Below, in pieces: positions 2,516 through 44,187 of a stretch of DNA of 64,000 nt (the stretch's first letter is position 1; every line of letters starts with the position of its first letter). The DNA is taken from NCBI GenBank assembly GCA_016703025.1, contig JADJCV010000004.1, positions 1,775,412 to 1,839,411 on the forward strand, in the 5' to 3' direction. The notes beneath the pieces are model-generated. The model searched no databases and was not told the origin of the DNA. It saw only the letters and a list, made by a program, of their open reading frames with translations. This stretch comes from Candidatus Avedoeria danica (lineage in GTDB: Bacteria > Chloroflexota > Anaerolineae > Epilineales > Epilineaceae). A program made the position numbers and the translations under genes.

Positions 2516-4174
2516 TTGCTCCGCAACCTGCGCTGGCAGATCGCGCTTGCCGCCGCCGGCGTCGCGCTCATCGGCCTTGTCCTGCTGTTCGTCTCCAACC
2601 GCGCGTTCGAGGATCGACCGGCCCGCGGTGGACAGGTCGTCGAAGCCGTCGTCGGCCGTCCGGGCACGTTCAACCCGGTGCTGTCCACGAGCGATGTCGA
2701 GATCGACGTCGCGCGGCTGCTGTTCAGCGGGTTGACCCGCCCCGACAGCGACGGCTCGATTCGGCCCGACCTGGCCGCGGAGTGGTCGATCAGCGACGAC
2801 GGCCGCGTGTACACCTTCCAGTTGCGCGATGCGGTCTGGCACGACGGCTATCCGGTGACGAGCGACGACGTCGTCTTCACGGCCCGGCTGGCCGGCGACG
2901 ACGCCGTCGGGACCGCCAAGCACCCGCTCGCCGCGGCGTGGCGGGACGCCGTGGTCGAGGCGGTCGATGCCACGACGGTCCGCATCACGCTGCGCGAGCC
3001 GTTCGCGCCGTTCCTGGCGGCCACGACGATGGCGCTCGTCCCGGCCCACATCTTCGCCGCCGTGCCGATCGGTGAGATCGCCCGCCACGAGGCCTCGACG
3101 CTGGCCCCGATCGGCACCGGACCTTGGCGCCTCGACCTGCCGGGCGGCCTCGAGCAGGACCAGATCCGGCTCGTGCGATTTCAGCGCCACTGGGACATCA
3201 CCCGCCGCCAGCCCTACCTTGACGGCATGACGCTGCGCTTCTACGACAGCCAGGCGGCCGCGCTCGAGGCGCTCGGGCGGCGCGAGGTCCAGCTGATGGG
3301 CGGCGTGACCCCGGACGCGCTCGCGTTGCTGGGCGATGACGTGCGCCAGCTCAACGCCGTGACGGGCGACTACACGCTCGTCTACCTGAACCCGGCCAAA
3401 GTGCTGTTCGCCGACGCACCGGTCAGGCGCGCCCTCGGCCTGGCGATCGACCGGAGCGGGATCATCCAGGACGTGCTGCGCGGCCAAGGCGCCGTGGCCA
3501 AGAGCCCGATCCCGCCCGGCTCATGGGCGTACGACGCCACTGTGCCCGCGCCCACGTTCGACCGCGCCGCGGCCGAGCAGCTGCTGACGGACGCCGGTTG
3601 GATCGACATCGACGGCGACGGGATCCGCGACCGCGACGGCCGCCCGCTGCGCTTTGCGCTCGACGTGTTCACCGGCGACACCGAGCTCCTGGCCGTTGCC
3701 GGCCGTCTGCGCGACGACTGGCAGAACGTCGGCATCGGCGTCGACGTGCGGCCCGTCGGCCAGGAGGAGATCCGCACGGCGCTGACGGAGCGGAGCTACG
3801 AAGCGGCGCTGTACGGCGTCCGCGCCCGCATGGACGACGACCCGGACCCATACCCACTGTGGCACAGCTCGCAGTCGGAGTCCGGACTGAACTTCGCCGG
3901 CTACGCCGACGCCCAGTCCGACCAGCTGCTCGTGGCGGTCCGACAGATGACCCCCGAAGACGTCGACGGGCGGCGCAGGTTGTACGGCCTCTTCCAGGCC
4001 CGCTTCGCCGAGCTCCAACCCGCCCTCCTGCTCTATCATCCGGTCTACACGACGGCGGTGGTCGACCCGAACCTCGGCGGCGTCCAGCTGCCGGCGTTCC
4101 TCGCCGAGCCGGCCGACCGCCACTTCACCGCGCGCGACTGGTTCGTTCGGACGGAGCGCATCTTCGGGAAGTGA
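2516..4174 (+). CDS. ABC transporter substrate-binding protein, family 5 (peptide/nickel type), membrane-anchored
   Basis: 552-aa protein with an N-terminal TM anchor and SBP_bac_5-like sequence throughout. TTG start 4 nt after the secG stop. Confidence 0.8.
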   Translation: MLRNLRWQIALAAAGVALIGLVLLFVSNRAFEDRPARGGQVVEAVVGRPGTFNPVLSTSDVEIDVARLLFSGLTRPDSDGSIRPDLAAEWSISDDGRVYTFQLRDAVWHDGYPVTSDDVVFTARLAGDDAVGTAKHPLAAAWRDAVVEAVDATTVRITLREPFAPFLAATTMALVPAHIFAAVPIGEIARHEASTLAPIGTGPWRLDLPGGLEQDQIRLVRFQRHWDITRRQPYLDGMTLRFYDSQAAALEALGRREVQLMGGVTPDALALLGDDVRQLNAVTGDYTLVYLNPAKVLFADAPVRRALGLAIDRSGIIQDVLRGQGAVAKSPIPPGSWAYDATVPAPTFDRAAAEQLLTDAGWIDIDGDGIRDRDGRPLRFALDVFTGDTELLAVAGRLRDDWQNVGIGVDVRPVGQEEIRTALTERSYEAALYGVRARMDDDPDPYPLWHSSQSESGLNFAGYADAQSDQLLVAVRQMTPEDVDGRRRLYGLFQARFAELQPALLLYHPVYTTAVVDPNLGGVQLPAFLAEPADRHFTARDWFVRTERIFGK

Positions 4175-4251
4175 TCTTCGGGAAGTGATCTTCGAACAGT
4201 GATCTTCGATCCGTGATCTTCGGACGTTGGTCTTCGGACGGGTAATCTTCG
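4159..4251. repeat. Tandem array of about 7 copies of a ~14-bp unit with core GTGATCTTCGG
   Basis: Copies begin at about 4159, 4172, 4187, 4201, 4215, 4229 and 4244. The first copy overlaps the last codons (..ERIFGK) of the SBP gene, and the array ends about 20 nt before the FtsB-like ORF. Confidence 0.8.
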
Positions 4252-4268
4252 GACAATAGGTCGATCCG

Positions 4269-4841
4269 TTGCCCCGATCGACCGTACTGCGAGGTGAGCC
4301 GATGGGACCGTCGACACCGCCCGGGACGACGCCGGAAGGGCCATGGCCGGTCGAGCCGACGCCGGCCGAGCCAACGCCGGCCGAGCCAACGGCAGCGACG
4401 TCAGCACCGTCCGCGCCCATGCAGTCTGAGCCCGTGCGGTCGGAGCCGCCGCGGCGCCCGCCGCCGCCCGCGCCGCCCCTCTCCCGCGCCAGCAGCCCGG
4501 GCGCACGCCGCGTCGTCGTGCTGGCCGTGTTGGCGCTGCTGTCGGTGTACACCGTTCGGCTCGCCCGCCAGTTCGCCGTGTCCCAGAGCGCCGAGGCCAA
4601 GCGCCTCTCGCTGGCGGCGCGCGTCGCAGCGCTCGAGACCGAGACGGCCGCCATCCAGACCGAGACCGCCTTCGCCGGCAGCGACGCCTACGTGGAGCGC
4701 TGGGCACGCGAGGACCAGCACATGGTCCGCCCCGGCGACCAGCCCGTCCAGGTGGCGCTGGCCACGCCGAGCACGCCGGCGGCGGGGACGCCGGAGGAGC
4801 CGGGGTTGTTCGAACGGTTATGGGGGTGGTTGCGGCGGTAG
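4269..4841 (+). CDS. FtsB/DivIC-like septum formation initiator family protein
   Basis: Pro-rich N-terminus, a single TM helix, then a coiled coil ending ..AYVERWAREDQHMVRPGDQPV, which is typical of FtsB/DivIC. An alternative start is the ATG at 4302. Confidence 0.55.
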   Translation: MPRSTVLRGEPMGPSTPPGTTPEGPWPVEPTPAEPTPAEPTAATSAPSAPMQSEPVRSEPPRRPPPPAPPLSRASSPGARRVVVLAVLALLSVYTVRLARQFAVSQSAEAKRLSLAARVAALETETAAIQTETAFAGSDAYVERWAREDQHMVRPGDQPVQVALATPSTPAAGTPEEPGLFERLWGWLRR

Positions 4842-4915: not shown

Positions 4916-4937
4916 GGGCGGCCACGGGGGGCCGCCC
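4916..4937. terminator. GC-rich hairpin (GGGCGGCC-N6-GGCCGCCC) between the convergent FtsB-like and LysM genes
   Basis: 8-bp perfect stem seen in the sequence. There is no strong T-tract. Confidence 0.3.
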
Positions 4938-13636: not shown

Positions 13637-13719
13637 CTCAGATCACCATTCGTAGACCGCCAGACCACAGTGACCTGCGCCCCGATTGCCGGCGATCTCG
13701 CCTCAGATCACCTGTGATC
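13637..13719. promoter_or_regulatory. Direct repeat CTCAGATCACC (x2) with a GATCACctGTGATC palindrome, 60-140 bp upstream of the minus-strand methyltransferase-rsmD operon
   Basis: Read in the sequence. Candidate operator sites. Confidence 0.3.
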
Positions 13720-38172: not shown

Positions 38173-41103
38173 CTAACGCAGTCGGGGCGGACGCCGGACG
38201 GTGAATGCGCGCACGACGAGCGGCAAGTAGACCCGCGGCCCGTGCTCGGGCGAGAGCCCGAACAGGACGGTCGTCGTCGTCCCGTCCGTGACGAAGGCGC
38301 CCTGTTCGGCCGGGCCGGTGACCACCCAGCCGGAGGGCGGCGCGACGCTCACGAAGAAGACGCCGGTCGGGAGGGTCGCACAGACAGGACGGTCCTCGCG
38401 GCTGCGGAGCTGCCGGTAGGTCGTGTGGCGGTCCGTCAGCACGTCGATGAGGACGTCGCTCTGCGCCGCCTCACCGGCGTCGCGGAAGCCGTCGCGGTTG
38501 CGGTCGTCGAACACGTCGACGCAGACCGTTCCTTGCGGGCCGTTCACGGTGGGTTCGGGCGTCGGCGAGAGGGTCGGGGCGCGCGTCGGCGGGAGCGTCG
38601 GGCCGCGGGTGGGCGTGGCGGTCGGACGCGGCGGGCTCGGCGTCGCGCTGGGCGTCGTCGGCGCGCGGGCGCCGAAGGCGAACGTCACGGACGCTTCGGC
38701 CATCGGTGCGCTGAAGTCGTATGCCCGCGCTCCGGAGGCCACGAGGTTGCGCGGCAGCTCGACGAGCTCGAGGCGGTAGGCGCCGTCCGCGAGGCCGCTC
38801 CAGCAATGATCGGGATCGTTCGAGCCGTCCGTCGTCCACGTGATGAAGACGCCCGAGAGCTGGTGCGTCAGCCGAAGCGTTGCCCCGGCCAGGAACCGCT
38901 CGCCGGCGTCGCGCCGGCCGTCGCCGTTGCGGTCGTCGAAGGCGATGATGCACGCCTGGCGGCCGGTAAACGTGGCGGGATCGCGCGTCGGGGTCGGCGG
39001 CCCGCTTGGCGTGTGGGTGGCCGTCACGCCGGGCGGCGTCGGCGTGGCGGAAGGGGTGCGCGGATCGACGGTCGGGCCGTCGGTCGGCGGCGGGACGGTC
39101 GGTTCGGGCGGTCGGGTCGGAGTGGCGCTCGGCGTCGCACTGGGCGTTTGGGCGAGGGCGGTCAGGGCGAGCCACGTGGCCGTGGCGCCCGGCCCTGCCG
39201 ACGCCGTGACGGCCGGCGCCGCGGTCATCGTCGCAATCCAGGCCGAGGTAGCGGTCGCGGCGGCAGCCGTCAGGGTCGGTCCGGCGATGACCGTCGCGGC
39301 GACCTCGGTGCGGAACGCCGCGATCGTGGCCGTGGCGCCGGCGACGGCGGTGGCGGTCTGGGCGATCGGCGGGACCGTGGCCGACGGCGTCGGGGACACG
39401 GACGGCGTCGGCGACAGCGTCGGCACGGCCGAGACCGTCGCGATCGATGTGGACGGCGCTGTGGCGGTGATCGACGGCGTGGCGCTCGAGCCGCCGCCCG
39501 TCGTCGGCGACGTCGGCGGCGTCGGCGACGCGGTCGGGACAGGGGTCAGCGTGGCGGCGAGGCCGATCGCGTAGCTGACGACGAGCGCCGGGCCGCTGGC
39601 GGGATCCGGCGGGGAGGGCTCGCGGTTGTAGACGTCGACGCCGGAGTGCCACGCCGCCAGGTTGTTCTCGTCGGGCAGCGGACCGTCGACCCGGAACGAG
39701 GCGCGGCCCGTCCCGTCGACGCGCGCCTCGAGGAGCGGCAGCTGCGCCGGCGCGAACCCGAACGCGTTCTTCCGCCCGGGCAGGAGGTCGGTCTCCTCGA
39801 GCGAGAGCCCGATCTGGGCCGCGATGGCCGCCGTGCTGACGGTCGTGAACGTGGCATCGCGCCAGCCCGCATCGATCTGCTCGTTCAGCAGGGCGAGCTT
39901 CCACTCGCCGGTCTTCAGGAACTCGTTCGTCTGGCCGATGAGCTCGACGCGCGCGCCAAGGATGTTCGCCTCGGGCGGGATCTCGGACAGATCGAACTGG
40001 ATCATCCCGTAGTGCGGGTTGTCGCCGCGGCCCCACATGCCGGCGTAGATCGAGGCGTAACCCAGGTGGTTCTTCCGGTCGCGCTGCGCCGAGACCTTGG
40101 GCACGTAACCGACGTCGGCGGGCGCGGGCCGGAGCGTGATCGTGTCGAACGACTGGGCGGGCGGCGGCGTCGGCGTCACCGTCGGCGGCGGGCCGGCGTA
40201 CGTCGGCAGCGGCGTCGGGGTGACGGTGGCGTTGCCCGCCAGCCACTGGGCGGCGTCGGTGTACTCCGTCTTGCAGTCGCGCGGGCAATACTTCACGGTC
40301 ACCGTCGCGCGGTCGACGACCTTGATGATCCCTTGCGCCTGGTTCGATTCCTGCGTCGAGAACCGCAGCGGCTGGACCGCCCGGAACAGCGGGAACGATG
40401 CGGCGTCCTCGACGAGCTCGACGAGGATGCCGACCGGATCGGCGTCGCTGACGACGCGAACGGTGATCCGGTCCTTCTTGGAGGCGTCGAGGTTCGCCGC
40501 CGGGTCGCGCGCCGTGATGTCCGCCTGCGCCGCAGCGCCGTAATAAACGTCGGCGTCGAAGGCGACGTAGAGGCCGACGTACCACTCGATTCCGGCGCCG
40601 ATGCCCGAGAACGGACCCTCGGGCCAAACCGCCGACGTGTAGTACGGGCTGCCGCCGGGCGGAATGCCGTTCTTCTTCTCGAACGTGATCGTCTCACAGC
40701 CCACACCACTGTACACGATGCCGTCGGGGTGGTTGACGAACTGCCGGCCGCCGCCCGAGTCCTTGACGAACACGCGGACGAGGTCCTCGAACGAGTGGCA
40801 GTAGATGATGTGGACGGTGTCCGTGCCCGCCGGGAACTCGGTGACGCCGGGGCCCTGCATGCAGTGGTTGTCGTCCAGCTGGGCCTGGTAGGTCTCGTCG
40901 CACATGTGGAGGTGCCAGGCCGGCGTGATGACCGGGGTCGTGCAGTACGGCGGGCAGGCCTGCGCGGCGGCGCGCGGCGGCACGGCCGTGGACACGACGT
41001 CCAGCACGAACAGCAGCGCCGACACCGCAATGCACAGGCCGAGCGGCCCGAGGCGGCGTGCGGCGCTCCGCAGGGGGGCGGAGGGCTGCGGGAAGGTTGC
41101 CAT
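38173..41103 (-). CDS. Large secreted multidomain protein with a Cys-rich N-terminal domain, the shared ~150-aa module, Pro/Thr/Ala linkers and two SdrD-B-like Ca-binding domains
   Basis: Signal peptide, then ..MIQFDLSEIPPEANILGARVELIGQ.., which matches the module in the S8 protein. Two C-terminal FDDRN[GR]DG[RF]RDAGE repeats follow. Confidence 0.75.
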   Translation of the reverse strand: MATFPQPSAPLRSAARRLGPLGLCIAVSALLFVLDVVSTAVPPRAAAQACPPYCTTPVITPAWHLHMCDETYQAQLDDNHCMQGPGVTEFPAGTDTVHIIYCHSFEDLVRVFVKDSGGGRQFVNHPDGIVYSGVGCETITFEKKNGIPPGGSPYYTSAVWPEGPFSGIGAGIEWYVGLYVAFDADVYYGAAAQADITARDPAANLDASKKDRITVRVVSDADPVGILVELVEDAASFPLFRAVQPLRFSTQESNQAQGIIKVVDRATVTVKYCPRDCKTEYTDAAQWLAGNATVTPTPLPTYAGPPPTVTPTPPPAQSFDTITLRPAPADVGYVPKVSAQRDRKNHLGYASIYAGMWGRGDNPHYGMIQFDLSEIPPEANILGARVELIGQTNEFLKTGEWKLALLNEQIDAGWRDATFTTVSTAAIAAQIGLSLEETDLLPGRKNAFGFAPAQLPLLEARVDGTGRASFRVDGPLPDENNLAAWHSGVDVYNREPSPPDPASGPALVVSYAIGLAATLTPVPTASPTPPTSPTTGGGSSATPSITATAPSTSIATVSAVPTLSPTPSVSPTPSATVPPIAQTATAVAGATATIAAFRTEVAATVIAGPTLTAAAATATSAWIATMTAAPAVTASAGPGATATWLALTALAQTPSATPSATPTRPPEPTVPPPTDGPTVDPRTPSATPTPPGVTATHTPSGPPTPTRDPATFTGRQACIIAFDDRNGDGRRDAGERFLAGATLRLTHQLSGVFITWTTDGSNDPDHCWSGLADGAYRLELVELPRNLVASGARAYDFSAPMAEASVTFAFGARAPTTPSATPSPPRPTATPTRGPTLPPTRAPTLSPTPEPTVNGPQGTVCVDVFDDRNRDGFRDAGEAAQSDVLIDVLTDRHTTYRQLRSREDRPVCATLPTGVFFVSVAPPSGWVVTGPAEQGAFVTDGTTTTVLFGLSPEHGPRVYLPLVVRAFTVRRPPRLR

Positions 41104-41158: not shown

Positions 41159-41229
41159 GGATCGGGTGAGGGATCGGGGGAGGGATCGGGGAGGGATCGG
41201 GTGAGGGATCGGGTGAGGGATCGGGCAAA
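41159..41229. repeat. Tandem array of 6 copies of a 12-bp unit GGATCGGG(T/G)GAG
   Basis: Copies start at 41159, 41171, 41183, 41194, 41206 and 41218. The array lies in the divergent intergenic region between the 976-aa gene and clpC. Confidence 0.8.
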
Positions 41230-41335: not shown

Positions 41336-43834
<2,499 letters not shown>

Positions 43835-43837
<3 letters not shown>

Positions 43838-44111
43838 TACCCCGCCACTGGACATGCCTGGGGTGCCCGACAGCGTACGGAGGCCGGAGATTCTGCAGTG
43901 GCAGGGCACTAGTACTCCACCACTGAACATGCTCGTGGCGGCCACCAGAGTAGGGAACCCCTAGAATCCACAGTGGTGGAGTACTCGGAGCACTTGGCGC
44001 GCAGTTTGCGGCGGTGGTCCTGCACGTACGCCAGGGAATCGATCACAGTACGATCGATCACGGTACGCATGTGGAGTTGGTGCAAGATCACAGTGATCTT
44101 GGGTCAACTCC
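43835..44111. repeat. Lower-GC noncoding island holding a duplicated ~75-bp element, a 15-bp tandem direct repeat and a 39-bp perfect palindrome
   Basis: Element copies at 43835-43905 and 43909-43984, each reading CTAGTAC(T)CC(G/A)CCACTG(G/A)ACATGC ... CAGTGG. The second carries the 12-bp inverted repeat ACTCCACCACTG/CAGTGGTGGAGT. Direct repeat ATCGATCAC(A/G)GTACG x2 at 44039-44068. Palindrome GGAGTTGGTGCAAGATCACAGTGATCTTGGGTCAACTCC at 44073-44111. Confidence 0.6.
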
Positions 44112-44187
44112 ACGTGCCGTTTCTAGGGCGACATCCCACCGCGGTCTGCGTCGATATGCTGCGGGCTCACCGAATCGCCTACCGCCC

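Follow-up and report, generated by a model that had tools for sequence, protein, structure and literature searches.

Bacterial VNTRs, or minisatellites, which are exploited in MLVA typing, consist of head-to-tail units of 10-100 bp that are gained and lost whole between near-identical strains; they contain variant units, are most unstable at their most homogeneous end, and can overlap both a gene end and the intergenic spacer beside it. Iterons and direct-repeat operators likewise comprise several direct repeats with a conserved core, and iterons measure 17-22 bp, are fixed in number, are conserved among relatives, and are recognized by a cognate binding protein. Contingency tracts are built from units of 1-8 nt, are located within ORFs or among the elements of a promoter, and turn expression on or off; one such phase-variable simple-sequence contingency locus is the TAAA tract that lies upstream of the Neisseria meningitidis gene nadA (PMC2791445). 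Finally, MIRUs (mycobacterial interspersed repetitive units) are tandem, intra-operon units of 40-100 bp that follow the direction of transcription, are dispersed over many loci, and are coupled to the downstream start codon. The small ORFs in them run into the neighbouring stop with a 4-nt overlap (PMC12548453).

Here we describe a 14-bp tandem array within a 64-kb stretch of DNA (the window, whose coordinates are used throughout) from a lineage labelled Ardenticatenales by NCBI and placed in Chloroflexota by taxonomy, and we consider it likely that this array is a young, still mutating VNTR (i.e., a minisatellite with variant units) in an intercistronic spacer. Direct reading, TRF (period 14; overlapping rows scoring 79, 55 and 104) and a repeat search (six in-register copies, spaced 14, 14, 14, 14 and 15) all place the array at 4157-4255, with seven head-to-tail units of which the sixth is 15 bp long. 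The features of the locus, all on the forward strand, are:

2288-2512, +, secG, which stops 3 nt before the start of the next gene (Pfam PF03840; gene calls)
2516-4174, +, SBP_bac_5 gene (SBP) for a peptide/nickel-type ABC transporter substrate-binding protein, 552 aa, ending in ...ERIFGK* (ORF list; Pfam PF00496, E=6e-68; gene calls on identical contigs)
4157-4170, +, unit u1, CGCATCTTCGGGAA
4171-4184, +, unit u2, GTGATCTTCGGGAA
4185-4198, +, unit u3, GTGATCTTCGAACA
4199-4212, +, unit u4, GTGATCTTCGATCC
4213-4226, +, unit u5, GTGATCTTCGGACG
4227-4241, +, unit u6, TTGGTCTTCGGACGG, 15 nt
4242-4255, +, unit u7, GTAATCTTCGGACA
4172-4174, +, present TGA stop of the SBP gene, made at the u1/u2 junction (sequence; ORF list)
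4171-4198, +, unstable part of the array, unit types GGGAA (u2) and GAACA (u3) (alignment of six contigs)
4171-4245, +, four predicted mini-ORFs linked by GTGA stop/start overlaps, VIFGK, VIFEQ, VIFDP and VIFGRWSSDG (sequence)
4245-4259, +, former gene end ATCTTCGGACAATAG, which includes the old TAG stop (4257-4259) and is today untranslated (the identical 15-mer ends the SBP gene in ten sister contigs)
4259-4283, +, inverted repeat GGTCGATC-N9-GATCGACC, right behind the old stop (repeat search; folding)
4291-4304, +, Shine-Dalgarno-like GAGGTGAG (4291-4298) and ATG start (4302-4304) of the divIC-like gene (sequence)
4302-4841, +, gene for a DivIC/FtsB-like septum-formation initiator of 179 aa, whose N-terminal Pro/Thr/Glu tail is rich in repeats (Pfam PF04977, scoring 30.2 bits where the cutoff is 28.9; orthologue alignment)

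An earlier note, made from the DNA alone, had recognized seven units at 4159-4251: the array is real and the count stands, but the span given was slightly short at both ends. Its reading of the first copy as the terminal IFGK* of SBP agrees with 4157-4174, where the gene ends as ATC TTC GGG AAG TGA within u1/u2 and u1 supplies the last four codons (IFGK). The array does not, however, extend to about 20 nt before the FtsB-like gene, the actual gap being 46 nt to ATG 4302 (42 nt from the old TAG), and the GATC attributed to the core occurs at five sites limited to units 2-5 and is absent from the other units. Each unit combines a conserved 10-nt core, GTGATCTTCG, with four variable last positions, such that 8 of the 11 inter-unit substitutions fall in 4 of the 14 columns (p=0.003, or 0.04 when corrected for the post-hoc choice of columns), a skew that speaks against the VNTR reading in that it could reflect constraint on the core. 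A further point against a young array is that divergence between units is about 13%, far above what the roughly 4% divergence to the single-copy sister lineage predicts; the array may mutate at a raised rate, or it may be older and have collapsed in the relatives. Within the 64-kb window, the exact 11-mer GTGATCTTCGG is confined to the array, and a motif search allowing 0-1 mismatch yields five matches inside it and two elsewhere, each with one mismatch (44093 and 54128); this concentration argues that the array is not a product of chance.

The state that preceded the array is preserved in close relatives. A sister lineage, represented by ten contigs (95.3-95.8% SBP DNA identity), has one ATCTTCGGACAATAG as the end of the SBP gene, followed by the same hairpin, though in a similar but imperfect form, by the RBS, and by an ATG 42 nt past the stop. 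Two outgroups are also single-copy (IFGR* with TAG at 87% identity, IFFGR* at 81%), and in them, as in the sister lineage, the single copy reads ...CGC ATCTTCGGACAATAG. The MGPSTPP start of the divIC-like protein is kept in the sister lineage and the nearest outgroup, whereas the 81%-identity outgroup starts otherwise. By parsimony across these sequences, the array is the derived state, and because the sister lineage and both outgroups are single-copy, it represents a recent, lineage-specific duplication of the 3' end of the gene, much as the first reading of an iterated duplication had supposed. The distance from the SBP stop to the divIC-like start is 113-169 nt with the array versus 42 nt in the single-copy state, and this longer untranslated spacer is the sole effect of the array that the sequences show. 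Since the ancestral spacers are 3 nt and 42 nt, the three genes probably form a secG-SBP-divIC transcription unit headed by secG.

Comparing copy number across strains, as had been suggested, revealed length polymorphism. Among contigs with 100% identity in the SBP coding DNA, the following alleles occur, most of which come from short-read metagenome assemblies:

6 units, contig L001
7 units, the window and contigs L003, L005, L190, L192 and L193
8 units, contig L004
10 units, contig L002 (a 1.9-Mb contig)

Across about 7 kb, array-bearing contigs are 99.78-99.93% identical and differ in length only at the array, at one 15-bp in-frame repeat, and by a 1-nt intergenic indel near 4930. In the alignment of six contigs, array changes are exact 14-nt multiples (-14, +14 and +42 nt), involve whole units at the 5' end, and affect only the two unit types that are most homogeneous: depending on the strain, there are 1-2 units of the GGGAA type (u1 and the copies of u2 taken together) and 1-4 of the GAACA type. 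Because L001 and L004 share five SNPs despite carrying 6 and 8 units, copy number has changed on several branches. The locus thus combines a single unit repeated head-to-tail, whole-unit steps between close genomes, and conserved flanks, as VNTRs do. Of the slipped-strand locus proposed earlier, the polymorphic copy number is borne out, but the SBP C-terminus is unaltered, its stop lying at the first unit junction. A further 7-unit contig, L147, was set aside as unreliable (3x coverage, truncation at the contig end, and several base differences in the array), and Logan (k=31) contigs L006 and L191 break within the array, a hint at variation inside a single population. A metagenome scan with the 19-nt left flank returned 17 chance matches and one sister-lineage contig, and no new alleles. 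A second array, of 12 bp at 41159-41225, differs between these strains too, with copy numbers of about 2.5 to 6.3, indicating that repeat instability is general in the array-bearing genome.

On the reading that we favor, a young VNTR, the final 14 nt of SBP (ATCTTCGGACAATA) were tandemly duplicated in one lineage of this uncultured wastewater bacterium. Each junction carries T(A/G)A in the SBP frame, such that the first junction always restores a stop; because of this regeneration the protein is still 552 aa long, and the last residue alone, Q to K, differs from the single-copy state. Slippage or unequal recombination among the near-identical 5' units would then gain or lose whole units, and the 3' units have decayed through point mutation, the last of them being the old gene end with its old TAG. 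Slippage is the presumed mechanism, and the array presumably evolves close to neutrality. Insertion of a mobile element with target duplication was rejected, as the inserted material is the duplicated motif alone.

Set against the described systems, the array resembles VNTRs in its variant units, its whole-unit gains and losses, its instability at the most homogeneous end, and its position over a gene end and spacer, and it departs from the usual VNTR in that its birth is visible through a single-copy, 95.8%-identical sister lineage and in that the unit restores the stop codon of its source gene. Like MIRUs, it lies between co-oriented genes of a probable operon with a mini-ORF overlapping the upstream stop; unlike them, it has a 14-bp unit derived from the local gene end, was seen at one locus only with no other copy in the window, and has a last mini-ORF that ends 56 nt before ATG 4302 and does not overlap the downstream start. 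It shares with contingency loci a tract upstream of a gene whose length would be altered by slippage, but it follows a stop codon, no promoter was detected, and all alleles encode the same SBP protein. Direct repeats and a conserved core recall iterons, yet the unit is 14 bp, its number is variable, and the sister lineage and two outgroups have a single copy, not an array, at the corresponding position. The array is an ordinary VNTR of a known kind, not a demonstrated regulatory site, and its origin is unusually well documented.

Searches for a regulatory signal gave no support for a promoter, an iteron, a structured RNA or a role of methylation. The earlier note had called the array promoter-proximal, but a scan of 3900-4600 detected no sigma-70-like promoter or terminator, and the single-copy relatives have just 42 nt there, which makes the site an intercistronic spacer. 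Rfam gave no relevant match for the region at E<=10 or for the whole window at gathering thresholds, and the spacer RNA folds no better than shuffles (z=+1.66, i.e., less stable), which argues against a structured RNA. Pairing of the CUUCG cores with the CGAGG of the RBS, as an anti-Shine-Dalgarno device, was rejected because the predicted opening energy of the SD-AUG region is flat across unit numbers (8.4-9.1 kcal/mol for 1, 6, 7, 8, 10 and 14 units). A scan of a genome collection for three ATCTTCG cores at 14-nt spacing recovered more than 120 arrays, a lower bound, from many phyla; among the matches listed, the most similar unit was GTAATCTTCGGGAA in an unrelated cyanobacterial MAG (L119), and the window's own species was not among them. 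In control scans of viral contigs, ATCTTCG gave 1 match versus 9 and 8 for two 7-mers of the same composition, so that the hits resemble tandem repeats of a generic sort rather than members of one family.

We regard it as very improbable that the units are iteron-like sites for a regulator or for a protein sensitive to GATC methylation. The contrast between a conserved 10-nt core and a variable 4-nt tail, the five GATC sites of units 2-5, and the GTGATC palindromes at 13706-13719 and 44086-44098 would suit such a function, but the array is missing where the flanking genes are 95.8% identical, its copy number is not constant, its 11-mer is found nowhere else in the window, and its 14-bp period does not match the helical repeat. 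The likeness to the sites at 44.09 kb and 13.7 kb, raised earlier, dissolves on inspection: those are true palindromes (GATCAC-N1-2-GTGATC) and have in common with the array the hexamer GTGATC alone, which occurs 75 times in the window. Nor did the idea of a methylation-sensitive element find support, GATC being neither enriched nor depleted in the window (578 observed versus 566 expected). Even less credible is that assembler errors in a metagenomic repeat created the copy-number differences. Most alleles do come from short reads and two Logan contigs break in the array, but the perfectly periodic stretch of the 7-unit allele is only about 35 nt, well below read length, the 7-unit form recurs in at least six separate assemblies, the 10-unit form sits on a 1.9-Mb contig, and the alleles differ by clean whole units while the rest of the sequence is colinear.

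Effects on the downstream gene deserve somewhat more weight, although each is unlikely. By analogy with MIRUs, terminating ribosomes might re-initiate along units 2-5 and always arrive at the same position, 56 nt ahead of the divIC-like start, thereby buffering the insertion; we judge this relay improbable. GTGA overlaps link the units to one another and also to the SBP stop, and in every allele the chain is present and ends at the same TAA (4243-4245); its -4 overlap is the classic coupling spacing thought to be exploited by MIRUs (PMC12548453). However, by our own reasoning, such a chain arises from any 3n-1 unit in which A, G or T stands before the needed stop, so that its existence is no evidence of selection; judged from the sequence, the predicted chain is a by-product of a 3n-1 unit carrying a stop. 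Moreover, the GTGs have no preceding Shine-Dalgarno-like sequence, and the chain falls 56 nt short of the next gene. There is a slim chance that copy number instead acts as a rheostat, tuning translation of the divIC/ftsB-like gene or survival of its transcript through the distance between the SBP stop and the RBS within the operon, by loss of translational coupling and exposure of untranslated RNA. Coupling efficiency drops as intergenic distance rises (PMC12548453), and here the spacer has lengthened from 42 nt to 113-169 nt; in addition, the array lineage has no promoter-like site between the two genes, unlike the more distant relatives with their conserved TTGACG-N17-TATCGT, and the divIC-like gene therefore probably depends on upstream transcription. 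But the predicted accessibility of the SD-AUG region is equal for 1 to 14 units, the ancestral 42-nt gap was already too long for termination-reinitiation coupling, and the 7-unit allele is both modal and dominant, with no sign of bimodal ON/OFF lengths.

A young VNTR remains our reading of the locus, and the array alone reveals no new regulatory mechanism. It flags a site at which short-read assemblies break off and units may be miscounted; paired with the 12-bp array at 41.2 kb, it could also serve as a strain marker for Ardenticatenales sub-populations in wastewater metagenomes. Above all, it offers a clean natural example of the birth of a bacterial VNTR, in which the last codons of a gene are duplicated as a 14-nt unit that persists thanks to the in-frame stop it brings along, and that afterwards turns unstable. 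It is doubtful that the array is non-neutral, whether through GTGA-linked pentapeptide mini-ORFs that relay ribosomes or through a length that sets the output of the essential divIC/ftsB-like gene from the secG-SBP-divIC transcript; if it were, strains of this wastewater Chloroflexota lineage would possess a heritable and fast-mutating control on cell division.

The tandem array described in the earlier note is present, with seven consecutive units within 4140-4260. Read directly from the sequence, the units and the two genes at their ends are as follows:

2516-4174, plus strand: SBP_bac_5 solute-binding protein (SBP) ORF (Pfam E=6e-68)
4157-4170, plus strand: unit 1, CGCATCTTCGGGAA
4171-4184, plus strand: unit 2, GTGATCTTCGGGAA
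4185-4198, plus strand: unit 3, GTGATCTTCGAACA
4199-4212, plus strand: unit 4, GTGATCTTCGATCC
4213-4226, plus strand: unit 5, GTGATCTTCGGACG
4227-4241, plus strand: unit 6, TTGGTCTTCGGACGG
4242-4255, plus strand: unit 7, GTAATCTTCGGACA
4302, plus strand: start ATG of the DivIC-like septum-formation gene (Pfam DivIC 30.2 bits, cutoff 28.9)

Tandem Repeats Finder assigned a period of 14 (overlapping rows, scores 79, 55 and 104), and a repeat search of the window recovered six in-register copies at spacings of 14, 14, 14, 14 and 15; GTGATCTTCGG, at one mismatch or fewer, occurs five times inside the array and twice in the remainder of the 64-kb window. G+C dips locally to 52-56%, against ~72% in the surroundings. 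The SBP gene ends in ATC TTC GGG AAG TGA, its last four codons coming from unit 1 and its stop codon straddling the unit 1/2 junction. Downstream, GAGGTGAG at 4291-4298 precedes the DivIC-like ATG, and orthologue comparison shows the N-terminus MGPSTPP kept in relatives. The Pro-rich N-terminal tail of this protein, much shorter in relatives, is encoded with in-frame 15-bp repeats (PAEPT, QSEP motifs) at 4346-4391 and 4415-4447.

Ten contigs of a sister lineage, every one of them single-copy, encode three SBP variants of the same 90% cluster (P0122, P0123 and P0127; 97.6-97.8% amino-acid and 95.3-95.8% DNA identity). There the gene ends in ...GAGCGC ATC TTC GGA CAA TAG, then GTCGACCGGCTGCCCCGATCGACCGTACTGCGAGGTGAGGAGATG; the 15-mer ATC TTC GGA CAA TAG equals window 4245-4259 exactly, and the sequence 3' of the TAG matches 4260-4304 save a few substitutions. 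Because of this identity, the last array unit is the original SBP gene end, the TAG at 4257-4259 is its surviving stop, and the remaining units sit between that gene end and the codon CGC. Relatives at 87% DNA identity (...ATCTTCGGGCGCTAG, 33-nt spacer) and 81% (...ATCTTTTTCGGCCGCTGA, spacer of ~106 nt carrying a conserved promoter-like TTGACG-N17-TATCGT) are also single-copy, and by parsimony the array originated in the window's lineage after its split from the 95.8% sister. Duplication of 14 nt, ATCTTCGGACAATA, yields ...GGA CAA TAA TCT..., placing an in-frame stop at the junction, a TAA retained in unit 7 (GTAATC) and now TGA in the younger units (GTGATC); such a stop explains why the SBP still has 552 residues, with only the last altered (Q to K). 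The single-copy gene end in sister lineage and outgroups thus supports the suggested duplication of the gene's 3' end, and the stop at the unit 1/2 junction speaks against copy number altering the SBP C-terminus.

Alleles were collected from contigs encoding exactly identical SBP protein or identical DivIC-like protein, in independent assemblies (wastewater metagenomes and MAGs). The array-bearing organism carries the NCBI label 'Ardenticatenales bacterium'.

Array alleles by contig
6 units: L001
7 units: window, L003, L005, L190, L192, L193
8 units: L004
10 units: L002, 1.9-Mb contig of GCA_963852785.1

In L001, L004 and L002, with 6, 8 and 10 units, the DNA coding for the SBP matches the window's at 100% identity, and array-bearing contigs share 99.78-99.93% identity across ~7 kb. 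Their alignment contains only three length differences: the array, a 15-bp in-frame duplication in the L002 DivIC-like gene (+5 aa, QSEPT) and a 1-nt intergenic indel. The array differs by exact whole units (-14, +14 and +42 nt), with gains and losses restricted to units of the GGGAA type (one or two) and the GAACA type (one to four) and units 4-7 constant across aligned alleles. Since L001 and L004 have five SNPs in common against the other contigs, there were at least three independent length changes; these fell within the accumulation of ~25 SNP columns in 7.3 kb, so that, by our own arithmetic, changes at this locus are about a thousand times as frequent as those at any one base, a crude ratio rather than a measured rate. 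Two Logan k=31 contigs (L006 at its 3' end, L191 at its 5' end; runs ERR712369 and ERR712380) end at the GGGAA units, where no 31-mer is repeated at the break points, and these breaks may point to more than one allele inside one sample. Comparison across strains thus revealed length polymorphism, and the slippage proposed earlier is supported to the extent that near-identical contigs have 6, 7, 8 or 10 units.

A second array varies as well:

41159-41225: 12-bp array GGATCGGGTGAG x5.7, in a divergent spacer

Its neighbours are a minus-strand gene of 976 aa that starts at 41103 and, on the downstream side, a Clp ATPase gene (41336-43837). The array lies upstream of a promoter-like pair TTGGCG...TATACT and has ~2.5, 5.7 or 6.3 copies among contigs with identical Clp protein. 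Tandem-repeat instability is therefore general in this genome, which favours seeing nothing out of the ordinary in the 14-bp array. Just 3' of the Clp gene (43834-43985) are long imperfect inverted repeats (17-nt arms 43834/43896, 28-nt arms 43911/43958), for which Rfam returned no match.

The iteron-like regulator array that the earlier note had also proposed is not supported: the motif lacks copies in the sister lineage and a search of the 64-kb window found it unique to the array. Two sites that the earlier note had likened to the array are true palindromes, GATCACCTGTGATC (13706-13719) and GATCACAGTGATC (44086-44098), sharing with it just GTGATC, which occurs 75 times in the window. Palindromes of the form GATCAC-N1-2-GTGATC number two against 0.04 expected, and they may be an operator of some regulator. 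The one at 44086-44098 forms the centre of an inverted repeat with 25-nt arms (44067-44117), before which stand two copies of ATCGATCACAGTACG (44038-44067). A methylation role found no support, GATC being unbiased (578 observed, 566 expected from trinucleotides). On the same measure CTAG is strongly depleted in the whole window (12 against 45); other 4-bp palindromes tested were near expectation, TCGA and AGCT ~20% above. One argument against pure neutrality comes from units 2-7, where the final four positions hold 8 of 11 column changes (p=0.003; 0.04 corrected for rotation). A second is that unit-to-unit divergence (~13%, 11/84 positions by our own count) exceeds that predicted from the 4% lineage divergence, which we read as a raised mutation rate inside the array or as an array somewhat older than it looks; alternatively, it could reflect weak constraint on the core.

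A promoter-proximal role gained no support either: simple sigma-70 and intrinsic-terminator patterns were absent from 3900-4600, and the ancestral 42-nt spacer leaves no room for them. Most likely, we infer, the array is an untranslated stretch within a secG-SBP-divIC transcript. Three contigs at 83-85% SBP amino-acid identity (L007 4663-4768, L009, L010) conserve the sigma-70-like TTGACG-N17-TATCGT between the SBP and divIC-like genes; its lack in the window's lineage and sister, with their spacer of only 42 nt, suggests a switch from own promoter to co-transcription. Rfam had no match for the array region, and its 181 nt gave a poorer fold than 192 out of 200 shuffled sequences (z=+1.66). 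The ribosome-binding site of the DivIC-like gene contains CGAGG, to which the CUUCG cores are complementary; an anti-SD decoy was rejected, as SD-AUG opening energies (9.1, 9.0, 8.8, 8.7, 8.8 and 8.4 kcal/mol at 1, 6, 7, 8, 10 and 14 units) predict no copy-number effect.

Three ATCTTCG cores at 14-nt spacing recur in at least 120 arrays of many phyla (185,579 species genomes scanned); in viral contigs the pattern matched once, against 9 and 8 matches for two same-composition control 7-mers. We took the arrays to be generic tandem repeats of 7 and 14 bp without family kinship to the window array, with the caveat that the control used viral contigs rather than species genomes. The closest unit among the matches listed, GTAATCTTCGGGAA x6 in a cyanobacterial MAG (L119), was taken to be coincidence. 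Arrays of (C/T)ATCTTCGATCCTC occur on several contigs of one Verrucomicrobia MAG (L013, L028, L043, L054) and on L035, L047, L063, L116 and L122 (MAGs labelled Gemmatimonadales, Abditibacteriaceae, Blastocatellia and Verrucomicrobiaceae), and look like a dispersed 7/14-bp repeat family. On L101 and L121, ATCTTCG-type 14-bp arrays directly adjoin, on its upstream side, what resembles the 5' end of a putative tRNA gene on the opposite strand.

A unit length of 3n-1 nt, together with the GTGA inside each repeat, turns units 2-5 into a chain of mini-ORFs (VIFGK, VIFEQ, VIFDP, VIFGRWSSDG), each beginning one base before the preceding stop. At every copy number the last of them terminates at TAA 4243-4245, which leaves 56 nt to the DivIC-like ATG. 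This -4 overlap, the classic spacing for translational coupling, is shared with mycobacterial interspersed repetitive units, which are thought to use it (PMC12548453). A 14-nt unit needing a stop gives such a chain almost automatically, and we therefore regard the chain as a by-product; an effect of spacer length or of the chain on division-gene expression seems quite improbable. The array is a bacterial variable-number tandem repeat whose ancestral state is clearly documented and whose unit regenerates the stop codon of its source gene, and it would gain interest if spacer length or mini-ORFs did influence expression of the division gene.
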